Assembly (NCBI GenBank): GCA_022820485.1
Contig: JAJEFJ010000031.1
Span: forward strand, 2,491 to 66,490
Reading direction: 5' to 3'
Length of the DNA: 64,000 nt
Origin: Candidatus Latescibacterota bacterium
Lineage (GTDB): Bacteria > Latescibacterota > UBA2968 > UBA8231
The notes under the pieces were generated by a model that did not search any database, was not told the origin of the DNA, and was given only the letters and a program-made list of their open reading frames with translations. Positions 1 through 13,761 of this stretch are shown in pieces (the first letter of the stretch is position 1; each line of letters begins with the position of its first letter). Both the position numbers and the translations under genes were made by a program.

Positions 1-891
1 CGCCACGAGCATGGGCACGCGCCCCCGCACCCACGGCTGCATGACCAACGCCAAGCGCGTCCGCCGCCGCAGGGCTGCTTCGTCCGCACCCGCAGCGTGC
101 GCCCGCGCCACCCGCGCCGCGTCAATGGCGCTGATAACGTGATTGATCAAAATGATCCCACTTATCGTGGAAGCTCGCTTGAGAAAGCGATTGCTCTCGT
201 CGCGTTGGTCTTCGTAGCGGAGCCGTCGCTCGGAATGGAAATTTTCGACTGAATCGACTTCAGTCGGCGCGGCGGCATTGCCGATACTGCCATCGCTCCT
301 CACGCGCTTCAGATCTTTCCAACCGGCGACATATTGATCGTATTTGCCAATCAGCTCGTAGTATTGCTGAATCTGGCTCGGCGCACATCCGCCAAAATCC
401 GCATTCCCCGACTGCTGCATCGCCGGAATGTACACTTCGACAACTTCGCTACTGCAAGGCAACGCGTGTGTGATCGACGAATTGTTCGAGATCGTCGAGC
501 CGCGCCAAGCTAGGTAGTTGAGCGGATCCCAGTGCTCGTCGGCCACCGCCCGGAACTCTTCCTCCAAATCGTTGCCCTTGCCCGTCCAAGCCACCCACAT
601 ACCCACCAGCGCGGCTTCGGCTCCGAAGAAAATCAACCCTCGCTTCTTCGATCCCGCATACCACTCGCCCAACCCCGGTACCAGCGCAGAAAACAAAAAC
701 GCCCGCTTGGACGACTTGCCCTTGCGCTCCTGCGTTCGCAGGGTCGGCTCAGGACCGGCATCGCCTTCCACCGCCCGCAATCCCACCAAGAACGCCTGCC
801 CCTCCTCGCTCAAAATACTCGGCAATCCCTCGGCTCGGACGCCGCCAGCAGTTAGCACCGCAACCACCAGCGCGATTCCTATCCTCGTCAT
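1..891 (-). CDS. DUF5683-like membrane protein (3' end runs off the window)
   Basis: Not in the ORF track because it has no stop in the window. ATG at 891 follows an AAGGAG RBS. My translation gives a signal peptide MTRIGIALVVAVLTAGGVRA, KSSKRAFLFSALVPGLGEWYAG and NHVISAIDA, motifs typical of DUF5683-type proteins. Confidence 0.7.
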   Translation of the reverse strand, partial: MTRIGIALVVAVLTAGGVRAEGLPSILSEEGQAFLVGLRAVEGDAGPEPTLRTQERKGKSSKRAFLFSALVPGLGEWYAGSKKRGLIFFGAEAALVGMWVAWTGKGNDLEEEFRAVADEHWDPLNYLAWRGSTISNNSSITHALPCSSEVVEVYIPAMQQSGNADFGGCAPSQIQQYYELIGKYDQYVAGWKDLKRVRSDGSIGNAAAPTEVDSVENFHSERRLRYEDQRDESNRFLKRASTISGIILINHVISAIDAARVARAHAAGADEAALRRRTRLALVMQPWVRGRVPMLVA

Positions 892-943
892 GCTTACTCC
901 TTTCCATTGCGGCAGCAGACAAAACGCGACCAGCTATTATACC

Positions 944-1678
944 CTAATCACCTTCATCTTCGAGATGATTTCTCAATACATTCTTGACGTAAGCCGGCGT
1001 TTCTTCTCCAACTTTTTCTGCGGTCTCTTTCAATTGGTCATACTCAGTTACTTCCTCACCTACCCAAAGAATATCCAGTCTGCGAATCTCTCGCATTGCT
1101 ACATGACTATAGGATTCTGGAAACGCCCAATAGCATGACCGGCAATTGCTGACTCCTTTCAATTTCCAATTTTCGCAATTCTCGCAACTCCATGACTTTG
1201 CCCGATTTGCAGATGGGCATATCAGCATGTACTCCTCAGAATCCTCCGACAGATCTATGTCGTCTCCAGCGATTTCGAATGGAATTCTATGGTCGATTTG
1301 CAGTTCGCGCTCAGGGAATGGTTCAAGATAGATATTGCAGCGAGCACCATGTTTTTCTATTAGCGTATTCTTCAGATCAGAAGAGAACGCCGTCCTCCCT
1401 GATAACTGAGCAGCGCGAACGTCTGATGGATTGCCAAACTTGTACGCGGCGATTTTCCTCCCATCAGAGCCGGTTACGCGAAACGTCTCTATCGGAATCC
1501 CCTGCTCTCGAACGTCTCTGATTGCTCGTGGCGGATGGTTGTAGCCGTAAATATCCTTGAGTTCCTCTGTCGTGATTTGTCCATTTTCAAGAATGTGCTC
1601 AATGACCGTTCTAGGTCTTTTCGCCTGCACGCTCTTCAGCAGGTCTAAAAAGTCTGGAGGATAGTTCTTTTTGCTCAT
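944..1678 (-). CDS. HNH endonuclease with N-terminal HTH, putative type II restriction endonuclease
   Basis: QIDHRIP...CPSANRAK HNH-like core with CENC and CRSC Zn pairs; overlaps the methylase stop by 4 nt; lower GC than the flanks. Confidence 0.75.
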   Translation of the reverse strand: MSKKNYPPDFLDLLKSVQAKRPRTVIEHILENGQITTEELKDIYGYNHPPRAIRDVREQGIPIETFRVTGSDGRKIAAYKFGNPSDVRAAQLSGRTAFSSDLKNTLIEKHGARCNIYLEPFPERELQIDHRIPFEIAGDDIDLSEDSEEYMLICPSANRAKSWSCENCENWKLKGVSNCRSCYWAFPESYSHVAMREIRRLDILWVGEEVTEYDQLKETAEKVGEETPAYVKNVLRNHLEDEGD

Positions 1679-2592
1679 TCCAAAGCGAGCTCCTGCTGAA
1701 TTTGCGGTATTCTATCATGTCTCTGACCATCGTTCAGGCGTTCCACTAAAGCAGGCGAAAGATACAGAGATTCGACAGTCTCGTGCTTGTCGCCCAAGAG
1801 TGTCGCTTGGCTCGAGCGACCGGCGCTAATGTGCAAATGAGCTAGGGAAAGCGACCGAGGGAGTGGTTTGCCGTGACTTTTTTCGCCGGTTTTCCCGTCG
1901 TAGCTCGCTATGTAAGAAAGCCTCCGATCATTCATGGCTTGCAGTGCGTCTGCGAACTCGGCATAGTTTAGCCCGCTACAATACCTATGATCTCTCGTAA
2001 AGGACGTGCCTTGATAGGGCGGATCCATGTAAATGAGATCCTCTTTTGCGGCCTCTGCGACCATCTTACGGAAATCTACTGCGGAAAGGAGGGTTTTCCC
2101 GGCAAGCAGGGCGTGAACACCGAGTATCTGGCGCTGCATAAGTATAGGACGCATACCCGACCGCCGGTTATCCGCGCTTTGATTAAATAGGCCCTCGGCA
2201 CTGTACCGCACCGAGCCTTTTACTATGCGCGCTAGCAGATAGAGCAAGTGATGAGGTTGGTGTGCAGCATTGAACTTGTCGCGGATGTCGAGGAAGAAGG
2301 CCCTTTTATCCGGGTGTTGTTCCGTCCACAACTGCTCGTAGTTTTTGCTCAACTCATTTGGCCGCTGCAAAATTTCTTCCCACAGCGCCATTAAAGGTTC
2401 GTTCAAATCATTGAGCCAAAATCGTTTTGCGAGCCCGTGCGCAGCAGCAGCAAGAGAAATGGCACCAGACCCGCAAAAAGGCTCAATGAGGCAATCGACA
2501 TCGTGCGGAAAATGCGCAAGGATATGCCGTGCAATACCGCGCTTACTACCCTGATAGGGGAATGGATGCGGAATTGCCATGTGCTGTAACAT
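1675..2592 (-). CDS. DNA adenine methyltransferase (Dam/D12 class, m6A)
   Basis: PYQGSK, EPFCGSGA (SAM-binding motif I) and YMDPPY (motif IV). Confidence 0.92.
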   Translation of the reverse strand: MLQHMAIPHPFPYQGSKRGIARHILAHFPHDVDCLIEPFCGSGAISLAAAAHGLAKRFWLNDLNEPLMALWEEILQRPNELSKNYEQLWTEQHPDKRAFFLDIRDKFNAAHQPHHLLYLLARIVKGSVRYSAEGLFNQSADNRRSGMRPILMQRQILGVHALLAGKTLLSAVDFRKMVAEAAKEDLIYMDPPYQGTSFTRDHRYCSGLNYAEFADALQAMNDRRLSYIASYDGKTGEKSHGKPLPRSLSLAHLHISAGRSSQATLLGDKHETVESLYLSPALVERLNDGQRHDRIPQIQQELALE

Positions 2593-2730
2593 CTCTACCC
2601 CCTCCGCATCACGACAATGCGGTTTGAATCGGTTCCGCGCTTGTTGTTGTCAACGCCCCACATGTTCGAGGCTTGGTAAACGTCTATTCGTTGATTACGA
2701 CGCAATGTGCGCCCCTAACAATCTGCGTTT

Positions 2731-5700
2731 CTACAAATACCCAAACAACACCGTAAAATAAGACTTCCACCGCCCCTTATCTGGCACCTCGTCAATCCCA
2801 TAAGCCACATCCACCTGCACCCGCGTCGGGATGCTGTAATATGAAATCAAGTCAAACCGCAACTGCCCCCCCACATCCCGCAGCGGGCCGTCGCGTCCAT
2901 AGCGTTCGTTCCACTCACCTATGCTCCGATCCCAAGCCTTGCCCATGCTGCCGTACACCGCGCCATACACTTTGTCGAAATATAGCTGCGCAATGCGCTT
3001 GTCCATATTCGGCAGCAGGGGAAAGCGCAGCGTCGCCGTGCCCATCAGGGCCTTGCGCCCCTCAATGCTGTAAAACGTATAGCCCTTCATAAAGTTGAGA
3101 CCACCGAGGCGATAGTCGAAGAAATCGCCGACCCGCGACGTGTCAGTGACTGCCTCGCTGTCGATCCAGCCGCCGTATAGCCGCAGGCCCAAGCGACTAT
3201 TGCCCGGCATGCTCATGTGCTCTCGCCAATCGACGGTAAACTGATTGTAGAACAGCTTGATATAGTTCTCGTCGATAAAAGATGCCTGCTCGTTGAAGCC
3301 GTCGATGAAATAGTTGAACATCCGGTCGTAGCGTGCGTAGAGCTGGCGACCCACAGGGCTTATATCGCGGTCCCGCCGCCGCGCAATCATCTCCAGCCGA
3401 TAGGTCAGCCCCAGCCCAAAGCCATTGAGATAGGTATAGCCAAAGGGCCGCTGGGCAGTGCGCTCAAATCCGACCTGTCCGTCGCCTTTGCAGACGAGGC
3501 AGTCGCTCTCGACACTGGCGTCGTAGCGTTCGTACGTGGCCGAGGCCGTCAGCTCCCCGTAGCGCCCCAATTTGCCGCGCACCCCTGCGTTTAACTGGCT
3601 CAGGTTGTAGTTGACGGCGTTGACAATGATCGTCCGCGCCTCCGAGCTATCGCCGCGAGCTGAGTGTCGGTGCTGATTGAATAGCTGTAAAAAGAAAGTA
3701 GGACGGAATCCCTTAAACTCGTATATGGCGAACAAATCGCGGTCGGTATTGGTCGGCGCGATGGCTCCCCCGGCGAATACGCTCTGGCGATTGAGCACAT
3801 CGCCAGCACTGAGGTACGCACCTGCCTTGAAGTACCCTTCGTCAATGAATATCCTCGGCAGAATCCCTGTCTTGAGAAAGTCAATGCCATACGCTTGCGG
3901 CGCGCTCGGCAACGCGGCCACGGACGTACCGCCCCAATCCAGCGACAAATCCTGAGAAAACCACGCCTCTGCAGCCGCCACCGGCATCCCCTCGTCCTGC
4001 AACCGGCGGATCTCAAAACCAGCCGCCGTATAAGCCGTAAAGACGACCTCACCCTCCGCGCCGACTGATGGGCTAAACGCGCCGCCAACAGTATTAGTTA
4101 TCTGCCGCAGCGCACGCGTCTCTAAGTTCAGCGCATAGATATTGAAAATGCCGCTGAAATCCGACGCAAATACGAGCTCCGCGCCGTCTGCGCTCCACGC
4201 GGGGTCGCGGTCCGTACCCGGCGTGGCAATGGCGAGATCGAATGATTCTTCGGCGAGCAGAGCTCCCCCTGCGTCCAATTCCACCACGGCAATGTTGCGC
4301 TGCCCCTCGCGCGCAATCGCAAACGCCAGCTTGCGGCCGTCGGGCGAAAAGCGCGGCGTGTAAAGCTGGGTGCCATCCGCGAAATGAGTTAGATAGCGCA
4401 GGTCCGTGCCGTCGGCCCGCACCATCGCCAAGTTGTTGCTAGTGCCCTTGTTCTGCACGAAAACGATCCACTCGCCATCGGGAGAATAGGTCGGATATAG
4501 CGCACGCATCCCGCGCGTCAGCCGCCTAACACTCGGCGGCTCCGGTGCCGTGCCGCTGACCATAGCCGGCACAAACCACAGCATATTGCGCCAAAAACTA
4601 GGACCGGCGGCCGCAGAATCCCATTCGTAAATATCCGCCTGCCGCGAACCGTATTTGTCCGCCCGGTCGATGCGCGAAAAGAGCAGCTTGCGCCCGTCCG
4701 GCGACCAATCCACGGTCGAAGCTGCTGCCGGAAACGCGGCGATTTCCTCCTCGCCGGTAGCGAGGTCGCGCACGATCAAGCCGTGTGGGTAGTGGTGCCG
4801 CTTGCGCGTCGATAGATACGCCAATTTTTCGCCATTGGGCGCCAGCCGCGGCCGCAGATTGGAAAAGCCGACATCCACGATCCGCTCGCCCTCGCGCAGC
4901 GGCCCCAACGCCGCTACCTGCGCCCGATAGCCCTGTCGCATGGACTCGATCCACTCGTCGTACAGCTCGTCCGCGCTCTTGCCCAAGACCTTTTTGCACG
5001 CCCCGTCAATGGCGAGGGTATGCCACTGCGACGCGGCCCGGTACAGTTCGGCGACTTTTTCTTCCCCGTACGTCTCGGCAATGTAGCGCACCAAGCCAAA
5101 GCCGTGATCGTACACGTATTCGTTGCCAAAGCCCTGCTTGCCAAAGACGCCCATCTGCTCAAAGGATAGCTGCTCGTCCGCCAGCACCAACGAGCGGAGC
5201 ACCATGTCGCGGTTGGCATCCCAGCGGTCGTGTCCCGTAGTCGCAGTACCATATTGGGCCGCGCCCTCAGCCAACCACATCGGCATCACCGTACCCATCA
5301 CCGGATAGGACGCGATGACATCTGGGTAGCCGATGAGAATGTCAGGCCGATTTTTCTCTCGCTGGTAGCCAAAGTACTGCAAGTAGAGCGCGGGGACGCG
5401 CTGCACGCCTTTGCGCGCTGCCCCCAGCGAAATGATGTGGGCAAACTCGTGGGTTATTACGTTGCGCAGCCAGTCCGAACTGCCGCGCAAGTCGAAGTCG
5501 TGGTCCAGCGACGTGGCCCAAATCTCAATGGTGTCTTGATAGAAAAAAGCCGCGCCATTGGCGTAATCGTCGTGGTCCTTGAGCACGATCCGCACGCGCC
5601 CGTCAGGCTCGTACCCATACAGTTCGGTAAGGGGTGCGTACGCCGCTTCGGCAATGCGCGCCGCCCGCGCCGCCGCTCCTTCCAGCCCCTCGTGGTAAAA

Positions 5701-5820
5701 AATGCGGAAGTGCTCGGTCTCTACCACCTGCCACGCCAACTCCGGGTGGTTTTGGGCGCGGGATGCGCTCGTCCAGCCGAGCATTAGGCCGACCAGCAGC
5801 AGGGTCGTCAATTTCCCCAT
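2731..5820 (-). CDS. Gluzincin (HEXXH) + PD40/TolB-like propeller + Omp85/BamA-type barrel outer-membrane protein
   Basis: Signal peptide; THEFAH followed by WLAEG; repeated WSPDG/YSPDG/FSPDG/WSADG; C-terminal LGGLNFMKGY and alternating beta-strands ending YFTVLFGYL. Confidence 0.78.
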   Translation of the reverse strand: MGKLTTLLLVGLMLGWTSASRAQNHPELAWQVVETEHFRIFYHEGLEGAAARAARIAEAAYAPLTELYGYEPDGRVRIVLKDHDDYANGAAFFYQDTIEIWATSLDHDFDLRGSSDWLRNVITHEFAHIISLGAARKGVQRVPALYLQYFGYQREKNRPDILIGYPDVIASYPVMGTVMPMWLAEGAAQYGTATTGHDRWDANRDMVLRSLVLADEQLSFEQMGVFGKQGFGNEYVYDHGFGLVRYIAETYGEEKVAELYRAASQWHTLAIDGACKKVLGKSADELYDEWIESMRQGYRAQVAALGPLREGERIVDVGFSNLRPRLAPNGEKLAYLSTRKRHHYPHGLIVRDLATGEEEIAAFPAAASTVDWSPDGRKLLFSRIDRADKYGSRQADIYEWDSAAAGPSFWRNMLWFVPAMVSGTAPEPPSVRRLTRGMRALYPTYSPDGEWIVFVQNKGTSNNLAMVRADGTDLRYLTHFADGTQLYTPRFSPDGRKLAFAIAREGQRNIAVVELDAGGALLAEESFDLAIATPGTDRDPAWSADGAELVFASDFSGIFNIYALNLETRALRQITNTVGGAFSPSVGAEGEVVFTAYTAAGFEIRRLQDEGMPVAAAEAWFSQDLSLDWGGTSVAALPSAPQAYGIDFLKTGILPRIFIDEGYFKAGAYLSAGDVLNRQSVFAGGAIAPTNTDRDLFAIYEFKGFRPTFFLQLFNQHRHSARGDSSEARTIIVNAVNYNLSQLNAGVRGKLGRYGELTASATYERYDASVESDCLVCKGDGQVGFERTAQRPFGYTYLNGFGLGLTYRLEMIARRRDRDISPVGRQLYARYDRMFNYFIDGFNEQASFIDENYIKLFYNQFTVDWREHMSMPGNSRLGLRLYGGWIDSEAVTDTSRVGDFFDYRLGGLNFMKGYTFYSIEGRKALMGTATLRFPLLPNMDKRIAQLYFDKVYGAVYGSMGKAWDRSIGEWNERYGRDGPLRDVGGQLRFDLISYYSIPTRVQVDVAYGIDEVPDKGRWKSYFTVLFGYL

Positions 5821-5900
5821 AGAAGAGTCCTCCTCAACTCGTAACCTCTAAAAGGCGATCTCACTGTTGCAAAGGCACTCCTCTTCCAATTCCTAATTCT
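5786..5900 (-). repeat. Duplicated leader + RBS + first ~12 codons, copy A (Omp85 gene)
   Basis: Shares CAGCAGGGTCGTCAATTTCC, GAGTCCTCCTCA and TCACTGyTGCAAAGGCACTCCTCTT with 9776-9920. Confidence 0.9.
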
Positions 5901-5918
5901 CAATTCCCAATTCCCAAC
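5887..5918. repeat. Degenerate heptamer tandem repeat (AATTCCT/AATTCCC)
   Basis: caattcctaattctcaattcccaattcccaac. Confidence 0.8.
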
Positions 5919-8645
5919 TCACTGACTCACCGCCATTTTGACCACGGCTTCCCCGCGCCGTCCGTCGTCGCCGTGCGCGATCAAGCGGCATAGATACAGG
6001 CCGCTCGCATAGCCTTCCACCGACCAAGTAATTTCGCGCTCGCCAGCTTCCAAGCCCTCCTTGCGAAGCTGGCTAACGTGCCCGCCCAACGCATCAAACA
6101 CCTCCAATTCAATGCGTCCAGCCACGCTCAGCGCAAAGCGCAAATGCGCCGCTTCACCGGGGCCAACTGGATTGGGATAGCAATAGACCCGGCTTAGCAA
6201 GAGCACCTCGGGCCTTACAACGGGCCGACCAGCCACCAGCGCGGTCCGCGACCCAGCCGCATCGGCACCCGCCTGCGGCCAATGGGCCGGCCCGCCGGTG
6301 TACTGCGCCGCTACCCGCTGCAAATCCCACGCATACACAGCCGTGCTATCCAAAGCCGCTAGCGCCAACCGGCCATCGCCGTCTAAATCCACTACCACCG
6401 GCGACCCCGTCGGGGGAGCAGCCGTCAGCAGAGGAAAGCCCGGCAAGAGCCGTCCATCGTCATCTACGCCAAAAATCCCGCTGTGGCCGGCGACGAATAT
6501 CTCCTGTTTGCCGTCGGCATCCACGTCGCAAAGCACCGGCTCAAAGACCAGATCGCCGACCTCGGCAAAGCGCGGCAAGGCCGTGGGAAAGTCGGCTTGG
6601 CGCAATCCGTCGATGCGCAGGGCGTGTACCGCTCCACCACGTGCAAGTAAAACCACCTCCAACAGGCCATCACCGTCCAAATCGCCCAAGACCGGCGGCG
6701 CGGCGAGCGAATCGCCCAACTCGACGACCTGTGCTCCGATCTCAACCTGTCCGCCGACCGTGGCAAAGATCGGCTCGACTTGACCATCGCCATCCAAATC
6801 GCCTACCGCCGAGGGCACCATCGGCGGTCTTTGTTCCTCTAACTCGCCGCTTATGGCATCTACCACATAGGTCTGTTCCGCTCCAGCGAGTAACAACTCG
6901 GCCTCCGCCCCCGCGCTGAACTGCGCGTCCAACGGTACCTCATCCAGCGCAAGCCGCCACCGCGGTTGGTCCGCCCCAACGTCCCACGCGCTAATCTCTG
7001 CGTCGCGCCGCAAAAAAACCTCGGGCCGGCCATCGCCATCTCCGTCTCCAGCCGCCAGCAACCGCGCTTCTGGCACTTGCCATGCCGCCACGCCATCTCC
7101 GGTCGCATAGCCGACTCCCCCCTCGGCCTCAAAGAGCAACTCTGCTATTCCGTCGCCGTCCAGATCCGCGGCTTGCAGCCGACCATCGCCCAGCAAATCC
7201 CGTGGCCAGCCCGGGCGCACGCGCCCGAAGCGTATGGCCACCTGCATGGTATCGCCGGGTGCGGAAAGCACTTCAATTTCAACGTCGGTCTCCCACTCCC
7301 GATTACTGCGCGAATCGGGCCGCGTCGCCGGGCCGAACAGCGTTTGTCCGCCGCCGAAAAACGGGTCGTCGGGCCATCCCTCGAATTGCAACTCCCACGC
7401 ACGGCGTGGATTGCCAATGTCGCGGTACCCGTCGGCCTCCTCCAAGGCAATTGCCGGCCAATGGGCTCGATTATTCACCGTGGAGTCTTCAGCGTGCGCT
7501 ATCACGCCCTCATCCACGTGCCATATCAGCACTCCCGACCCCGGGACAAAGGCGTCGTATTCGTCGATCTCCGTCCACACGCTCTCTTCTATAGTGATCT
7601 GATCGGGATCGATCCACACCTTATTTTCGTCTTCCCCAACGCCGCGTTGGCCGCGCTGCTGCCTGTTCTCCAGCAAAAAGTACTCGCCTGTGGCAATGGG
7701 AATGCGCACGGCCTTGGGCAGATCTCCACTGCGGTCGGTCGCCAGCAGCGATAGTACGGTATCGCGCCGCACCACCATCGGCTCGATCCACCTTAGCTGC
7801 ATCTTGCTCCAAGCCATGGGGTGCGGCGGCGCGAAACCTCTCACCCACGCAAGGCTGTCGGTCCGCACATAGCCCAAAGCGTTGGCCCCTATGTCCATCA
7901 GACTCCAGCTTCCTAGCGCCGGCGAGCCAGTAGCGAAATTGGACAACCCAGGCAGGCCCAACTGATGGCCAAAGAACTTGGCCAACAAGCCATTGAGACC
8001 GACCCGACCATTGAGGCTGGGCGACTCCGGCAGGATCCATGCCTGCTCTATCTCCACACCACCCACGGTCAGCGGCCCGCCGTTAAAATCCGCAAAATCG
8101 CGCTCGGCTAGGAAGACTGAGCGAATGTCGTTCAGGCCGCCGGTCTCGTAGCCGACCCCGGCGTGGAACACGAGGAAGCTGTTGAATTCGTCCAAGCGCG
8201 GGCCGTCGGGATCGGCCTGCGCGGCGTGGAGGGCAGCGCGCACCAATTCGATCCACTTCGCGCCGATCTCCTGGGTCGTGCGCCCGTTGCCGTAGTGGAG
8301 CATGGATTGGGGAAGCGTGTACGCCTGCTGTGCGGCGCGGGGGAATACCTCGGCGGAAATCGCCACCCGACCTGCGGAAACGACCTCGTAATAACGCGCC
8401 AGGGCGGTCAAATGCCGCTCGAAATAAGCGCGGTCGTGCGGCGGCAGGTCATAGGGAAGCACGTAATCTTCTGCCGCTTCCTCTTCCTGCGCCGAGCGCA
8501 GATCAAACGCGCCGATTCCCGTGGTTGTCAGCTCATCGGGATTTTCGTGCGGAAAATCCACGCGCAAGGCCAAAATTCGCCACTCGGCGTCAGCGTCGGT
8601 GGCCGCTGACAACAGCAGTGAGAAGCAGAAGCCTAAGAGAAGCAA
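5919..8645 (-). CDS. Secreted M6 (immune inhibitor A)-like domain + FG-GAP/VCBS repeats + T9SS type A-like CTD; zinc motif degenerate
   Basis: ILALRVDF, VFHAGVG, GHQLGLP, WSLMD, EYFLLENR and GVLIWHVDE are M6-like; several DLDGDG repeats; C-terminal YCYPNP...ASGLYLCRL. TTG start is uncertain. Confidence 0.8.
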   Translation of the reverse strand: MLLLGFCFSLLLSAATDADAEWRILALRVDFPHENPDELTTTGIGAFDLRSAQEEEAAEDYVLPYDLPPHDRAYFERHLTALARYYEVVSAGRVAISAEVFPRAAQQAYTLPQSMLHYGNGRTTQEIGAKWIELVRAALHAAQADPDGPRLDEFNSFLVFHAGVGYETGGLNDIRSVFLAERDFADFNGGPLTVGGVEIEQAWILPESPSLNGRVGLNGLLAKFFGHQLGLPGLSNFATGSPALGSWSLMDIGANALGYVRTDSLAWVRGFAPPHPMAWSKMQLRWIEPMVVRRDTVLSLLATDRSGDLPKAVRIPIATGEYFLLENRQQRGQRGVGEDENKVWIDPDQITIEESVWTEIDEYDAFVPGSGVLIWHVDEGVIAHAEDSTVNNRAHWPAIALEEADGYRDIGNPRRAWELQFEGWPDDPFFGGGQTLFGPATRPDSRSNREWETDVEIEVLSAPGDTMQVAIRFGRVRPGWPRDLLGDGRLQAADLDGDGIAELLFEAEGGVGYATGDGVAAWQVPEARLLAAGDGDGDGRPEVFLRRDAEISAWDVGADQPRWRLALDEVPLDAQFSAGAEAELLLAGAEQTYVVDAISGELEEQRPPMVPSAVGDLDGDGQVEPIFATVGGQVEIGAQVVELGDSLAAPPVLGDLDGDGLLEVVLLARGGAVHALRIDGLRQADFPTALPRFAEVGDLVFEPVLCDVDADGKQEIFVAGHSGIFGVDDDGRLLPGFPLLTAAPPTGSPVVVDLDGDGRLALAALDSTAVYAWDLQRVAAQYTGGPAHWPQAGADAAGSRTALVAGRPVVRPEVLLLSRVYCYPNPVGPGEAAHLRFALSVAGRIELEVFDALGGHVSQLRKEGLEAGEREITWSVEGYASGLYLCRLIAHGDDGRRGEAVVKMAVSQ

Positions 8646-8683
8646 GGGAGCTAAATCGCAGCGTCGCCGCTCGACGCGGCAAC

Positions 8684-8731
8684 GACTCGACGACTCGACT
8701 GAGCTCGCCGAAGTCTGAGCTCGCCGAAGAC
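8684..8731. repeat. Nested REP-like 24-bp imperfect palindrome
   Basis: GACTCGAC[GACTCGACTGAGCTCGCCGAAGTC]TGAGCTCGCCGAAGAC. Confidence 0.8.
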
Positions 8732-8757
8732 AAAACCAGCGTCCGATGGGAACACCC

Positions 8758-9810
8758 TCAGAAAATGATGTTCATGGAAATGGGCGTATTGTCTCCCACC
8801 ACCGTCTCTTCACTACCGATTATATACGCCACGTCAAACTGGAAGCGATTGTATTTTAGCCCAACGCCAAAGGTCTTGGTGCTTACCTCGCCGTCGGTGT
8901 CCTGAGAAAGGCCCGCCCGCAACGCGATAAACGCCTCCCCTTCGCGCGCGGAAAGCCCATATTGGTATTCGCCGCCCACGTGCAGATCCATCTCCTCGAA
9001 CTCGTTGCTCATGCCCTCGTCGGCCCAGGCCTTGGCCAAGTTGCTGACAAAAGACCCATCGGCAATCAGCGGTTTGTACAGGTCAAAGGAGAGCATCAGG
9101 TCGTTGTATTGGGTATCCATCACGTCGTACGCCACCCCGACGACGATGTGCTGGGGCAGCGGATCGGCCTGATCGGCGTCGATATAGGCGATCTTGGGGC
9201 CTAGGTTGCGCAGGGCCGCGCCAAAGCTGAGGCTGGGAGCGGGTTTCCATAAAAAACCCAAATCCGCGGCAAAGCTGTTGCCCACGCCTCGGCCTCGCTC
9301 AATGCCGGCCCCTGCATCGGCCAAGTTGCTGCGGATGAACTTCAAGCCGATACCAGCGGACGTATTGTCGCCGATATGCGCCCCGTAGGCCGCAGACACA
9401 GCCACGTCATAGCTGCGGAAGGTGCCTTGTTGGTTGCCGCGCTCGTCCGTGCGGATCTGCTCGCCTAGATTCAGCAGCGCGACATTGAAGCCAAAGCCAC
9501 CCCATCCTTCCACGGGCTGGGAATAGGCCAGAAACTCGTAAGACAAGTCGTCGGCCAGCTTCGGCAGCCACCTGGTGTGCGAAAGATGGAGCTTTTTCTT
9601 GCTCTGCCCGACCAGCGCGGCTGGGTTGAAGTAGCTCGCCGTGGCATCATCGGCCACCGCCACGTACGATTCGCCCATAGCAATGGCGCGGGAACCCGGC
9701 TCGATCAACAACAGCAGTGGAGCACTGCGGCTCTCGGGCGTGGCCCGGACCCCATCGGGCAATGCGCCGACACAAAGGCCAGCCAACAGCAGGGTCGTCA
9801 ATTTCCTCAT
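8758..9810 (-). CDS. porV: PorV/PorQ-family outer-membrane barrel
   Basis: LLIEPGSRAIAMGESYVAVADDATASYFNPAAL plug motif, GIGLKFIRSNL, terminal Phe; directly downstream of the porU-like gene. Confidence 0.85.
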   Translation of the reverse strand: MRKLTTLLLAGLCVGALPDGVRATPESRSAPLLLLIEPGSRAIAMGESYVAVADDATASYFNPAALVGQSKKKLHLSHTRWLPKLADDLSYEFLAYSQPVEGWGGFGFNVALLNLGEQIRTDERGNQQGTFRSYDVAVSAAYGAHIGDNTSAGIGLKFIRSNLADAGAGIERGRGVGNSFAADLGFLWKPAPSLSFGAALRNLGPKIAYIDADQADPLPQHIVVGVAYDVMDTQYNDLMLSFDLYKPLIADGSFVSNLAKAWADEGMSNEFEEMDLHVGGEYQYGLSAREGEAFIALRAGLSQDTDGEVSTKTFGVGLKYNRFQFDVAYIIGSEETVVGDNTPISMNIIF

Positions 9811-9920
9811 AGCGGAGTCCTCCTCAGCTCGGAATAAAATATAAAAACGATGCCTCTAGTACTAAGGCAATATCACTGCTGCAAAGGCACTCCTCTTGCA
9901 ATTCGCAATTCCTAATTCCT
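9776..9920 (-). repeat. Duplicated leader + RBS + first ~12 codons, copy B (porV)
   Basis: Aligns to 5786-5900 with two indels. Confidence 0.9.
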
Positions 9921-9922
9921 AA

Positions 9923-10025
9923 CTGATGTTACGCAGTAGCTCGCTATCTTGTGGTTTATTGAAGCCTGTTGACCCAAGATATTGGGGCGAAATTGAGGAT
10001 TTTCTAGAAAACTGCGTAACATCAC
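9923..10025. mobile_element. 103-bp MITE-like element, copy 1
   Basis: 15-bp terminal inverted repeats CTGATGTTACGCAGT / ACTGCGTAACATCAC; about 12 mismatches to 52639-52741; no ORF. Confidence 0.85.
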
Positions 10026-10044
10026 TTCCTAATTCACCACATGC

Positions 10045-13000
10045 TCACTTGGCGACCTGCAAGACGGCGCGGCGCGCGACCGCAGCCCCGCTTTCCCGCT
10101 CGGCTTCTATTCGGTAAATATACGAACCGTTGGCCAAACCCGCCGATGGCGTCCAAGACACTTGGTTATAGCCAGCGCGCGTCTGCCCGTCTAGCCGCTC
10201 TATCAGCCGCCCGGCCAGCGAAAAGACCTCTATCTGCACCGTGCGCATCTCGTCTGCTAGCTCATACGTGAAGTAGCCGCTATCGCGCATGGGATTCGGG
10301 TAAAATAGAACGTTGGCAAGGCTCGTATCCCCTTCGTCTTCTCCAACCGTGACGACCACGGTCTCACGCGACGAATTGTTGAAGTTGTCCCAAGCCTTCA
10401 GGCGGATTTCGTGTTTGCCGGTTTCCAATTCGGGCAGGGGAAATTCGATCACGCCCTGCCGATAATCCCCGCCCTGCACGCTGTATAGATCCGTCAAAGT
10501 GAATAGCTCGCCGTCAATGGCCAGCTCGATTTCGTGTCCGGTCTCTCCGGTGATGTTGATGCCGCTGGGATCTGCAATCGAGGCCAACAACACCGTCTGC
10601 CGCGGAATCGTGCTGCCTTTGGCTCCCTCAAAGCGCAGGGAAATTTCCGGCCCTTCCACGTCCGCTTCCACCCCTTCAGCCGTGCCCGCCAGCACCAGTC
10701 CACCCACCGCGCCAAAGGCCGCCGGGCGATCATCGCTCCAGACGTAGGCGCTGATGCGGCCGTTTTGTCCGCCATACGTAATGTCTTTAGGCACCCTAAA
10801 TGCGGCGCGGAAGCGGCCCTCGGCTACTGGAAAGCGGCCGCGAAAAATGGGGGCACCGGTCTGCTGATAAGTATAGCCCTCCAAGTCGCTCTCTTCACTC
10901 GAATCAAAAGCCTGCAACCACACTTGGCCCGCATAAGCAGTGGCCGACGCACCCGCGGCGTCGAGGACTTGGCCGGCGATGGCTACTTCGCCGAGAGCGC
11001 GGAGCGAGTCGGTCGCGTCAATCTGCACCTGAAAGCGCGGCATGGCCAAGCGCGTCGCCGGGTCGCCGAAGAGCGAGTAGCGCTGAATGTTGCGAAATGT
11101 AGTATTGCCGCTGGGAACGTAATACGGCAACAGCAATTGCTTGGCTTCGAAAAGGGCTAGCCCAATCGGCACGTGCTCCCTTCCGGTGTGGAACATCTGC
11201 CAGTAAAACTGGTTGGCCAACTGGACGTTGGTGGAGTGATACCCCACCCGGGTCGCGCAAATCATGCCGATCACGCCCCCGTCTTCCTTCTTCAGCAGCG
11301 CTTCGGGCAAGGAGAGGCGCACTGGATCGTCGAACACCCCAACTTGACTCGCAGCCGTGTAGAACAGGGGCAAACGAGCACCGTTGTTGAGTTTGTCCAA
11401 ATCGCGAGCCAGCAAAAACATGCTCTCGTGGGCCAGCACGTTAAGGCTGCCGTGCCCCAAATAAGTCACAGTGAGCGCACCCTCGTTGAAGAGCCGAATA
11501 AACTCGTCGCGGGCCCGAGGTTTCTCTCGTCCCTCTAAGGGAAATTGGGCGATGTAGAGCTTGATCAAATCCAGCGAATTGGGCAGGATGTTGCGGGCCA
11601 TGTATTCGCTGTCGCGGATGAAATAAGATTCGACCTTGTGCGGCGCGTCTCGATTGAGCAAGTCGTCCGAGACTAATGCCTGTCGGCTCTGCCAAGGCCC
11701 CACTTCGGGCGTGCGGTCGTAGGCGATGATTTTATCGACGACCACGTCGGCCTCGGCTGCCGTCTGCACCGTCAGCCGCCCAACGGCCATGTCGGGGTAC
11801 AAATCGCCACCCACCACGCGCGTGTACCACTCGTCGTACGTGCTGTCGCCGTCTTGGAACGGCGGGATCCAATTGCCCTGACTGAGCGCTGAGTTGTTTT
11901 TGTAATCGTACGAACCATCGCCGATCAAGGCCACAAATAGCGGCGCGGGATCCCAGTTCTCGGCCGCGTACGCGAGAAAATTGCGGAGCGCCGCCGGGTC
12001 TAAAAGGCCGCCGGAAAATTCGTCGTAGATGTCTTGGACGTCGATAGCCGCCGTCCGCAGGGGCGGCCCAAAGCGGTTGTCTTCCGCCCGCCATTGGGCC
12101 AAGCGCTCGGCCGCAGCGCGAAAATCGCGGTGGTAAATCGCCACCCAATCGGCCCCCCGGCTCCTAGTCGTCAAATCGCCGGGCCAGTCGAGCTCAATGC
12201 GCATTGGTCGCTTCCAAGCAGCCGGGCCGCCTACTGCGTAATGACGCGGCACATCCCCGGGCCGATCCTGAAAAATTACCGTCCCGGCTTGTGCATCGTA
12301 TTCGAAGTCCACGATCTCGGCCAACCCCGCAGACACCTCAAAGATGCGCGGCTGCTCGTCGGCAAAACCCGCGAGGCGAAATTGCGTGGTGCTCGTCAGC
12401 GGATAGGTGAAAAGCAACTCGCCGCGCTCGGCGACTAAGCCCCGGCTGTACTCCACTTCGTACCAATCGAAGCGAGACGGATTGCCGGAGTGAAAAATTC
12501 CCAAGTGGTTCAGCCCTTCCTGTGCTCCTCGCGTCGCCCACAACGTATCGGATGTAACCGGCATCTGGCCCGATCGCGCCGGGATTGCAAAAGCCGCTGT
12601 TCCAATGGTCTCTTCGTTCCAGCGCACCGAAAAACGCGGCTGTGTCCCAGGCACCCCGATAAAGCCCAACCGCACAGCCACCGGATCGGGGGCGGCCTGC
12701 CGCACCACTATCGGGAAATTGCGCGCATTGCCGCGAAAGTCCTCCCAGTACCAAGTGTAGCCGGATTTGATGCCTACGAGCTGGTTGAGGACGAACTGCT
12801 CGGCTTCCTCGTGGATTCGCTCCCGATAGCTCGTGGGCTGCGGCGGATCGGACTCCACCAGAGCACCGCTTCTTTGCTCGGCCCGCCGCCCCTCGCCTCC
12901 ACCGCCGAAACCCAGCCAGTACGCGTTCTCGTGCGTGTAAACATTGTGCCGATACTGAAACGAGCGGCTGGCCGGAACGTATTCCCAGCGGCTGACCGGC

Positions 13001-13761
13001 TCGGCCCAAAACAAGACGAAGTCGTCCGCGTCCAAGCGGCCATCGCCCCCATCCTCCACGACTAAGCCCACTTCCCGCAGGGCTTGGGGCGGATTTATCT
13101 CGTCGATGGGCAAGGCGTTACCGCCGCCGTAGTGCAGGCGCAAACTCGCTGGATTGACGTCGCCGATTGCGACCCCAGCGGCCTCTAAGTCGGCTCCCGA
13201 TATCCTGTAGATCCCCTCTTCCGCGACGGATATTCGCAGCCAAGTCCCTTCCTGCAACGCGGCTTTGCGCGCCGGCCGCCTTTTGGGCGGCAATCGCCAG
13301 TTCTTGGCTTGCTCGGGGTTGACGAGCAACCCTCGGTAGAATGCTTCGCCCCAAGGGTCGGCAACGCGAGAGCCGCTGCTGCCGGTCACGTGTAGGTCAA
13401 CGACGATTCGATCGTACAGAGTCCGCGTTCCATCCGCTTCAACGAGCGGGGCAAACGCCACTGGAACGACGCGCTGGCGACGCACAAAACCGCTTTCGCC
13501 GAGAAATACCGGACCGGGCGTGGGCGCGTCGTCTTCAGCAGCGCGATCCGTCCGCGCTACGCGGGCTTCGACCAGTTCCAAGCGAACCTGTCCGTCGGTT
13601 GGGACGCCGATCAAGGCACCGCGCCCCTGCTCCAATTCTCGGCCCTCGGGCAGCCAAACCAACTGCAGGCGCTGTGGCGTCTGTTCGCTTACGCGCAATT
13701 CTGCCGTGGCCGCACTCCCGCAAAAAAGCACGAGCACCCAAAAACAGCATTTGAATCTCAT
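10045..13761 (-). CDS. porU: PorU-like C25 (gingipain-family) protein with T9SS CTD; catalytic Cys replaced by Ser
   Basis: IYDEFSGG, GDGSYDYKN, AVGRL, YLGHG, ATRV, YSLFGDPA, KAWDNFNNSS and FYPNP...LANGSYIYRI. Confidence 0.88.
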   Translation of the reverse strand: MRFKCCFWVLVLFCGSAATAELRVSEQTPQRLQLVWLPEGRELEQGRGALIGVPTDGQVRLELVEARVARTDRAAEDDAPTPGPVFLGESGFVRRQRVVPVAFAPLVEADGTRTLYDRIVVDLHVTGSSGSRVADPWGEAFYRGLLVNPEQAKNWRLPPKRRPARKAALQEGTWLRISVAEEGIYRISGADLEAAGVAIGDVNPASLRLHYGGGNALPIDEINPPQALREVGLVVEDGGDGRLDADDFVLFWAEPVSRWEYVPASRSFQYRHNVYTHENAYWLGFGGGGEGRRAEQRSGALVESDPPQPTSYRERIHEEAEQFVLNQLVGIKSGYTWYWEDFRGNARNFPIVVRQAAPDPVAVRLGFIGVPGTQPRFSVRWNEETIGTAAFAIPARSGQMPVTSDTLWATRGAQEGLNHLGIFHSGNPSRFDWYEVEYSRGLVAERGELLFTYPLTSTTQFRLAGFADEQPRIFEVSAGLAEIVDFEYDAQAGTVIFQDRPGDVPRHYAVGGPAAWKRPMRIELDWPGDLTTRSRGADWVAIYHRDFRAAAERLAQWRAEDNRFGPPLRTAAIDVQDIYDEFSGGLLDPAALRNFLAYAAENWDPAPLFVALIGDGSYDYKNNSALSQGNWIPPFQDGDSTYDEWYTRVVGGDLYPDMAVGRLTVQTAAEADVVVDKIIAYDRTPEVGPWQSRQALVSDDLLNRDAPHKVESYFIRDSEYMARNILPNSLDLIKLYIAQFPLEGREKPRARDEFIRLFNEGALTVTYLGHGSLNVLAHESMFLLARDLDKLNNGARLPLFYTAASQVGVFDDPVRLSLPEALLKKEDGGVIGMICATRVGYHSTNVQLANQFYWQMFHTGREHVPIGLALFEAKQLLLPYYVPSGNTTFRNIQRYSLFGDPATRLAMPRFQVQIDATDSLRALGEVAIAGQVLDAAGASATAYAGQVWLQAFDSSEESDLEGYTYQQTGAPIFRGRFPVAEGRFRAAFRVPKDITYGGQNGRISAYVWSDDRPAAFGAVGGLVLAGTAEGVEADVEGPEISLRFEGAKGSTIPRQTVLLASIADPSGINITGETGHEIELAIDGELFTLTDLYSVQGGDYRQGVIEFPLPELETGKHEIRLKAWDNFNNSSRETVVVTVGEDEGDTSLANVLFYPNPMRDSGYFTYELADEMRTVQIEVFSLAGRLIERLDGQTRAGYNQVSWTPSAGLANGSYIYRIEAERESGAAVARRAVLQVAK

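Follow-up and report, generated by a model that had tools for sequence, protein, structure and literature searches.

Background

The T9SS, or type IX secretion system, has been described almost only from Bacteroidia. Its component PorU is described as a cysteine peptidase or sortase (PMC5121618, PMC4560394), with C690 as the catalytic cysteine of the Porphyromonas gingivalis protein (PMC5121618). Outer-membrane proteins of the 'WD40-Omp85' class, which carry a TolB-like propeller, were presented by Heinz and Lithgow in 2014 with their function unassigned (PMC4104836), and the word 'peptidase' is absent from the main text of that article. Relatives of both are encoded at the start of a window of 64,000 nucleotides from a Candidatus Latescibacterota bacterium (assembly GCA_022820485.1, contig JAJEFJ010000031.1, positions 2,491 to 66,490 of the forward strand). 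The first 13.8 kb of this window hold seven genes, all on the minus strand, to which the coordinates given below refer. Five of them encode envelope proteins: PorU, PorV, an M6-like protein (M6i), a fusion of a gluzincin, a propeller and an Omp85-type barrel, and a small fifth protein. A preliminary description, made from the DNA letters alone, had already listed five co-oriented envelope genes, and this was borne out by profile scores and by the fold of the barrel; two inserted non-envelope genes, encoding a methyltransferase and a helix-turn-helix (HTH) protein, were not mentioned there.

As judged from the sequences compared here, the cluster is widely conserved yet unstudied, and its PorU, which throughout the clade has serine at the place of the catalytic cysteine of every PorU studied so far, may be a 'cysteine' protease that works with serine. 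The literature collection searched contained nothing on Latescibacteria in connection with T9SS, on a serine PorU or on the NF052323 family to which M6i is related, and its only papers on PorU or PorV together with Omp85 were two unrelated ones on P. gingivalis. On balance, the locus is probably a T9SS attachment and processing operon with a working serine-type PorU, a non-catalytic M6i and an Omp85 fusion acting as a periplasm-facing assembly or quality-control factor.

A PorU with serine at the nucleophile position

Gene porU (10045-13761; 1238 aa) matched the model of the T9SS C-terminal signal peptidase/sortase, NF033707, with 634 bits (cut-off 420) over model positions 2-1081 of 1095. Its Peptidase_C25 domain (11047-12141, residues 541-905) was recognised by PF01364 with an E-value of 1.4e-76. 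The protein also carries a C-terminal domain (CTD) of its own (10093-10302, residues 1154-1223), which attained the TIGR04183 cut-off (23.1 bits, cut-off 23) but not that of PF18962 (21.9 bits, cut-off 27). HMMER aligned Ser805 (codon AGT, 11347-11349) with the cysteine of P. gingivalis PorU (PDB 6za2, 'TATCDF'), the place of C690, and with that of RgpB (1cvr), while His770 (11452-11454) was kept and faced the GHG histidine of both structures. Going by these alignments, the protein is a PorU orthologue other than a cysteine peptidase.

This replacement was shared by close relatives. Among the 120 closest homologues, 111 were caught by the search pattern and all 111 displayed serine; the remaining nine were missed by the pattern and were looked at later in the C25 alignment. 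PorU sequences clustered at 50 % identity (151 in total) comprised 132 His/Cys and 13 His/Ser proteins, each of the latter sharing roughly 50 % identity or more with the query, as well as six fragmentary or misaligned ones. The 56 PorU reading frames adjoining an Omp85 gene were divided into 53 with His/Ser, two with His/Cys (loci L090 and L096) and one fragment. The serine codons of the 53 Ser-type loci were AGT (30) or AGC (23), one step away from TGY. With respect to GTDB-coded families (f1 to f14), 20 fetched regions displayed serine in seven cases (f6 and f1, the latter also in its second and third copies of PorU) and cysteine in nine (f5 and f7-f14); four more cysteines belonged to a PorU-related paralogue of approximately 1800-2400 aa.

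Conservation of the serine-type site

An alignment of 282 C25 domains, retained when they covered at least 330 of 370 residues, contained 138 Ser rows and 144 Cys rows. All Ser rows but one had the histidine (137 of 138); the one without it was a distant, probably misaligned protein of 1709 aa (P0311). About 50 positions conserved in Cys-type PorU were at least equally conserved among Ser rows, and residues beside the nucleophile were more strictly conserved in Ser-type than in Cys-type proteins. Ser rows displayed Ala804 (137/137), Gln806 (135/137) and Gly840 (137/137), whereas position 804 was T or S in 138 of the 144 Cys rows, only six of which displayed Gly840. None of 137 sequences had Ala, Gly, Thr or Asn in place of the serine, although its AGY codons drifted synonymously. 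His842 was considered as a compensating residue specific to serine; it occurred in 130 of the 137 Ser rows, yet it was shared by the Cys-type sister rows P0264 and L111, which weakened this candidate, and the local alignment that pairs it with W284 of RgpB is weak and has this pair at its end.

In a FastTree phylogeny of 157 non-redundant C25 rows, from which the columns of the trait itself had been removed, a single clade with a local support of 100 united 36 Ser rows with one row of Cys type (P0252). According to this tree, the serine arose either once, with one later reversal, or two to three times. When pairs were matched for divergence of the neighbouring Omp85 gene, the C25 identity of Ser-Ser pairs equalled or exceeded that of Cys-Cys pairs, the latter being a small sample of seven loci. 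Neither the C25 alignment nor the rate comparison gave any sign of relaxed constraint or rate acceleration in Ser-type PorU. These patterns point to purifying selection on the serine itself and on the surrounding site. Since histidine and conserved core were kept and no relaxed constraint was seen, a serine-based PorU is more likely than a dead scaffold. The preliminary description had offered both roles; its serine-based version is still live, and its scaffold version has become the less likely one.

Gene order and distribution

Synteny was compared over 79 loci of named records with the Omp85 gene as anchor, and each other gene was counted where the flank was long enough. Upstream, 65 of 67 loci had M6i (flank of 3 kb or more), 64 of 66 had PorV (4.5 kb or more) and 49 of 56 had PorU (8 kb or more); downstream, 60 of 63 had the fifth gene (1.5 kb or more). 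The linkage of the M6 and Omp85 genes to porU-porV, on which the preliminary description had staked its module, was hence retrieved in relatives. The seven loci without PorU comprised five with porV-M6i-Omp85 only (L083, L087, L091-L093) and two (L089 and L097) with none of the three upstream genes. The former five, which represent some Latescibacterota lineages, kept the order porV-M6i-Omp85-DUF, DUF being the fifth gene, with no porU ahead of it; the upstream genes of L091 were on the other strand.

The five-gene order was encountered in metagenome-assembled genomes (MAGs) titled Ignavibacteriae (L090), KSB1 (L094) and 'bacterium' (L096), and it also occurred beside Cys-type PorU, namely in L090, L096 and families f8-f14. 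The order porV-M6i-Omp85-DUF was shared by at least two phyla and persisted to approximately 30 % identity. As reconstructed from these records, the five-gene order is ancestral in several lineages of the Fibrobacteres-Chlorobi-Bacteroidetes (FCB) group and not lineage-specific. Within the phylum of the window, 121 genomes were sampled: the Omp85 fusion was detected in 118 of them (52 out of 52 of high quality), a PorU-like match in 111 and SprA in 115. Families f2 and f3 displayed SprA and the fusion, but the long Cys paralogue alone. This paralogue was the sole C25-type protein found in these two families and occurred in the second sampled phylum too; its His/Cys representatives in L103, L117, L118 and L119 (genomes G061, G039, G073 and G067) scored below both the PorU and PorU2 cut-offs.

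The second sample consisted of 151 genomes of a phylum holding a MAG titled 'Bacteroidota bacterium'. The fusion was detected in 67 of them, PorU in 110 and GldM over cut-off in 36. Among the 110 PorU genomes, 65 displayed the fusion without GldM, 29 displayed GldM without the fusion, 16 had neither and none had both; G153 displayed the fusion and a GldM-like match of 36 bits, below cut-off. PorU scored highest, and was best fitted by its model, in genomes that had GldM and no fusion. By coordinates, 52 of the 67 fusion genomes had the fusion on the strand of PorU, 3-8 kb downstream of it; in 11 both were on different contigs, in one they were far apart on one contig, and three had no PorU over cut-off. 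In the two phylum samples the fusion and a detectable GldM never co-occurred, which is reported here as a pattern and carries no statistic; these genomes are kin, and the division probably reflects a few deep clades, which dominate both samples. The suggestion of a variant module of a non-Bacteroidetes lineage accordingly stood for the host lineage and fell for the restriction, the fusion being present in a Bacteroidota-labelled phylum.

T9SS components of the genome

The window derives from a Latescibacterota MAG of 6.26 Mb (G000; 107 contigs, 93 % complete and 8 % contaminated). Of the canonical T9SS parts, SprA, CTD cargo, PorU and PorV were all found in it, and the GldK/L/M/N motor and ring were not. 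Of 201 candidates 51 were scored, 50 of them being CTD-only matches, which gives at least 50 CTD matches, and seven matches of the PorV/PorQ family exceeded their cut-off. One PorZ-like gene (G000:C62:41601-43454; 737 aa) matched NF052228 with 170 bits (E 7.5e-50) without reaching the cut-off of 260, and one copy of it was present in each of the eight genomes of the genus. The C25 domain of PorU was the only one in this genome, no PorU2 was found in it, and NF033708 (ChiA-type C-terminal signal) gave no match; a second PorU with an intact cysteine, the finding that would have spoken for an ordinary system, did not appear. The closed genomes G083 and G009 likewise held a single C25 domain each.

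As to the motor, the best GldK match in G000 attained 84 bits against a cut-off of 350 and concerned the generic C-terminal part alone. No GldL and no GldM were detected in this genome; Pfam GldM_1st (PF12081) was found in none of the eight genus genomes, and GldM exceeded its cut-off in none of the 121 phylum genomes, where a single marginal match (E 5e-4) was obtained. The GldM model performed as expected on the positive control G181 (612 bits). GldN was found in none of the eight genus genomes by a search run without positive control. Very diverged GldKLMN homologues may nevertheless exist in Latescibacterota. In line with the preliminary description, the host is no ordinary member of the Bacteroidetes, being a Latescibacterota genome with no detected GldKLMN motor. 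The sprA neighbourhood in G000 displayed LptF/LptG directly upstream on the opposite strand, unknown genes and nothing specific to T9SS; a gene for SelA (selenocysteine synthase, E 2e-144; L142 5802-7184, G000:C22) lay approximately 5 kb upstream of sprA.

The gluzincin-propeller-Omp85 fusion

The fusion gene (2731-5820; 1029 aa) encodes three successive parts. The N-terminal, peptidase-MA-like domain (4906-5754, residues 23-305) matched PF13485 (Peptidase_MA_2) with 28.3 bits (E 1.8e-6), short of the cut-off of 32.4, and its Atlas feature score to Peptidase_MA_2 clusters was 0.96. It contains a single HEFAH at residue 124 (5437-5451) and Glu185; H124, E125, H128 and E185 were invariant in 18 out of 18 aligned homologues (alignment A1) and in all 79 locus reading frames, while the mean column identity of the alignment was 62 %. 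The sequence Q23-N-H-P-E-L following the predicted signal peptide was also invariant in the 18 homologues (Gln23, 5752-5754); a Gln at the mature N-terminus recalls what is reportedly known as the 'Bacteroidetes Q-rule'.

The beta-propeller (4000-4887, residues 312-607) aligned by VIA-align with TolB (1c5k; Z 25.9, root-mean-square deviation (rmsd) 2.7, 240 residues aligned) and matched PD40 with E 3e-22. No POTRA family was among the Pfam matches of the fusion. Compared with PDB sequences, the fusion profile retrieved TolB-like propellers alone, with no BamA and no peptidase. Because the propeller swamped fold searches with the whole protein, the C-terminal 399 aa were folded separately. The resulting AF2 model had a pLDDT of 81.7, and its best 18 VIA-align rows were all from the Omp85 superfamily (BamA, TamA, FhaC/CdiB, Sam50 and Toc75), with Z values of 15.9-20.2 against 14.6 or less for other porins; the Foldseek picture agreed. 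The highest score was that of Flavobacterium johnsoniae BamA (9n2d_A; Z 20.2, rmsd 6.0, 314 residues aligned). At the level of the modelled fold, the C-terminus (2743-3867, residues 652-1026) is a 16-strand Omp85-type barrel.

PorV, M6i and the fifth protein

Gene porV (8758-9810; 350 aa) begins 234 bases downstream of porU and encodes an outer-membrane shuttle of the PorV/PorQ family, scoring 234 bits with the family model NF033709 (cut-off 90) and 158 bits with the equivalog NF033710, below its cut-off of 250.

M6i (5919-8645; 908 aa) combines an M6 domain, an FG-GAP propeller (FG-GAP_3, E 2e-15) and a CTD. Its match to NF052323 ('T9SS-dependent M6-like inactivated metalloprotease') reached 282 bits, below the cut-off of 600, whereas the syntenic orthologues of L090 and L094 passed it with 904 and 655 bits. 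Since proteins in the same gene position belong to the family, the M6i of the window is, on this profile evidence, a diverged relative of it. The last 105 aa matched the C-terminus of NF052323 (model positions 951-1041, E 1e-13) and scored 21.6 bits with TIGR04183, just under the cut-off of 23. A comparison of protein P0003 with PDB sequences gave no useful match. In M6i, residues 223-227 (7965-7979) read KFFGH at the site where M6 peptidases canonically carry HEXXH, and neither HEXXH nor HXXEH occurs anywhere in the protein. The motif was degenerate in every syntenic homologue, in several different ways. The idea that M6i substitutes for PorZ was dropped given the separate PorZ-like gene. The earlier count of two altered protease domains and an intact gluzincin in the fusion was accurate, as seen from Ser805 in PorU, KFFGH in M6i and HEFAH with Glu185 in the fusion.

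The fifth conserved gene (1-891) encodes a small envelope protein with a signal peptide. It extends five codons beyond the window start, giving 302 aa on the contig. Its previous labelling as DUF5683-like was right as to the resemblance and not as to the Pfam gathering score (14.4 versus 26.7 bits); DUF6677 was below threshold as well (17.6 bits, cut-off 24.3). Homologues in alignment A3 displayed conserved motifs, including PG-x-G-E/Q. A complex prediction with residues 22-640 of the fusion returned a score of 0.00, which is uninformative either way.

Proposed function and alternative explanations

The genes identified above, the states of their catalytic residues and their conservation, synteny and distribution may be put together into the following picture. 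The locus would be a T9SS attachment and processing operon in which porU and porV precede three conserved, uncharacterised envelope genes, an ancestral order of five that a recently inserted methylase/HTH pair interrupts in this genome. A single TGY-to-AGY change would have turned the catalytic cysteine into serine in one PorU clade (f1 and f6), and the protein would still serve as a C-terminal signal peptidase/transpeptidase. In its catalysis, His770 would activate Ser805, the acyl-enzyme being an oxy-ester in place of a thio-ester, in an active site presumably retuned by Ala804, Gln806 and Gly840, fixed in the clade. M6i would be a non-catalytic, CTD-bearing surface protein. The fusion is most likely comparable to BAM, the machinery for beta-barrel assembly, with a barrel of the BamA type, a propeller like those of BamB and TolB and a zinc protease that works, all in a protein facing the periplasm, and would serve T9SS outer-membrane components or stalled cargo.

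Several points weigh against this proposal. Replacing Cys by Ser usually cripples a cysteine peptidase whose site is not adapted to it. Many f1 genomes (not G000, G083 and G091) also carry the PorU-related paralogue of approximately 1800-2400 aa with its cysteine, and the 93 % completeness of G000 bears on the non-detection of this paralogue there. The sister families f2 and f3 keep SprA and porV-M6i-Omp85 and live without canonical PorU, which makes the latter dispensable in this class. The functional tie of the trio (M6i, Omp85 fusion and fifth protein) to T9SS is deduced from gene order only, and the periplasmic topology of the fusion is an assumption taken over from solved Omp85 proteins, in which domains N-terminal to the barrel face the periplasm. 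The C-terminal 389 aa of the fusion (P0002) had no Pfam Omp85 match (PF01103, Bac_surface_Ag) at E-values up to 1; among the 120 fusion homologues listed, PF01103 was precomputed on a minority. Finally, the P. gingivalis data considered here (PMC5121618) concern C690A alone.

The replaced nucleophile also invites the explanation that Ser-type PorU is a pseudo-enzyme, i.e. a scaffold of the PorV/PorZ/PorQ attachment complex, CTDs being left uncut or cut by another protease such as the long Cys paralogue. The occurrence of such His/Cys paralogues in part of f1 and in f2 and f3, the last two doing without canonical PorU though SprA is present, speaks for this explanation. It is nevertheless judged unlikely in view of the histidine retained in all but one Ser row, a serine that never gave way to Ala, Gly, Thr or Asn despite synonymous codon drift, neighbouring residues stricter than in Cys-type proteins and the lack of rate acceleration; moreover, G083 and G009 are closed and had no other C25 domain, and the PorZ-like partner was retained throughout the genus. 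Far less probable still is a hand-over in which PorU and the M6 protein ceded catalysis to the gluzincin of the fusion, which would now process or export CTD cargo. This is essentially the 'reassigned' protease activity of the preliminary description, and it draws on the fusion having the only intact protease motif of the three and on its tight synteny with porV. An intact HEXXH..E (79/79) and a dead M6 motif were, however, also found beside Cys-type PorU (L090 and L096; f8-f14), so that both states predate the Cys-to-Ser change, are independent of it and leave no hand-over event to be explained. A role of the Omp85 protease in cleaving CTDs at the surface is disfavoured on topological grounds too, as domains N-terminal to the best-matching Omp85 barrels are periplasmic and PorU acts at the cell surface. 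CTD removal takes place at the surface (PMC11285876).

Another explanation, also unlikely and about as much so as the pseudo-enzyme, assigns the fusion and the small membrane protein to general outer-membrane biogenesis or quality control, with no specific role in T9SS and a place after porV that was merely inherited. The near-universal presence of the fusion in the phylum (118/121; 52/52 of high quality), its mean column identity of 62 % and its persistence after loss of canonical PorU would all fit, as would its membership in the 'WD40-Omp85' class, which was likened to a BamA-BamB fusion (PMC4104836). The order porV-M6i-Omp85-DUF, held over at least two phyla to approximately 30 % identity, argues for a T9SS connection instead, as do the 65 out of 67 second-phylum fusion genomes that also have PorU; SprA was present in 115 of the 121 phylum genomes, and fusion and SprA were never seen apart informatively. 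A T9SS attachment and processing operon with a working serine-type PorU is the reading retained here.

A broader extension of this reading is tentative and rather doubtful: the locus might belong to a second, GldKLMN-independent form of T9SS outside classical Bacteroidia, whose core includes the porV-linked trio, and one Latescibacterota clade might possess the first natural serine-nucleophile peptidase of clan CD (C25), acting as a transpeptidase. The Ser-fixed PorU clade, in which PorU is the sole C25 protein of closed genomes with dozens of CTD cargoes, constitutes a natural test of whether the C25 fold runs on serine. The trio provides three candidate T9SS components for many FCB lineages in which no motor genes were found; in the second phylum, 65 of the 110 PorU genomes carry the fusion, none of them together with a detectable GldM.

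Other genes of the window

A Dam-family adenine methyltransferase gene (1675-2592; PF02086, E 1.6e-32) and an HTH gene (944-1678; HTH_39, E 4e-5) separate the fifth gene from the Omp85 fusion. They were inserted together and lie outside the module: of the 79 related loci, 14 had the methyltransferase and 11 the HTH gene, all of these being close relatives. GC content drops to 0.54-0.56 in this region (944-2592), compared with about 0.60 elsewhere. A promoter and terminator scan returned fewer sites than did shuffles and offered no basis for an operon claim. Just before the window start, the next co-oriented gene (L101 286-2289, minus strand; G000:C52) encodes a candidate for a further T9SS cargo, a protein of 668 aa that carries a CTD of type A and scored 37 bits, short of the cut-off, for an HExxH domain of the MXAN_6640 type. 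The remainder of the window contains housekeeping genes, including those for SecDF, IleRS, Ddl and HtpG.

Comparison with known systems

The P. gingivalis attachment complex PorU-PorV-PorZ-PorQ resembles the present system in the full-length PorU match, the CTD of PorU itself, the adjacent porV and the PorZ-like gene and PorV/PorQ paralogues of G000. It differs in that serine here takes the place of C690, three extra conserved genes follow porV, and no GldL, GldM, GldN or specific GldK was detected. With the NF052323 family, the M6i of the window shares architecture, gene position and degenerate motif, but its score of 282 bits stays below 600 and its FG-GAP part has diverged.

The fusion resembles the WD40-Omp85 subfamily in placing a TolB-like propeller before an Omp85 barrel, in lieu of POTRA domains. 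Unlike that subfamily, it adds an N-terminal gluzincin with an invariant HEXXH..E and occupies a fixed position after porV and M6i. By functional analogy, it may finally be compared with BamA, BamB and BepA of Escherichia coli, since insertase barrel, propeller and zinc protease would here be united in one polypeptide. BepA removes stalled outer-membrane proteins; it belongs to family M48 and is not of the MA_2 type displayed by the gluzincin of the fusion; the likeness is one of analogy only.

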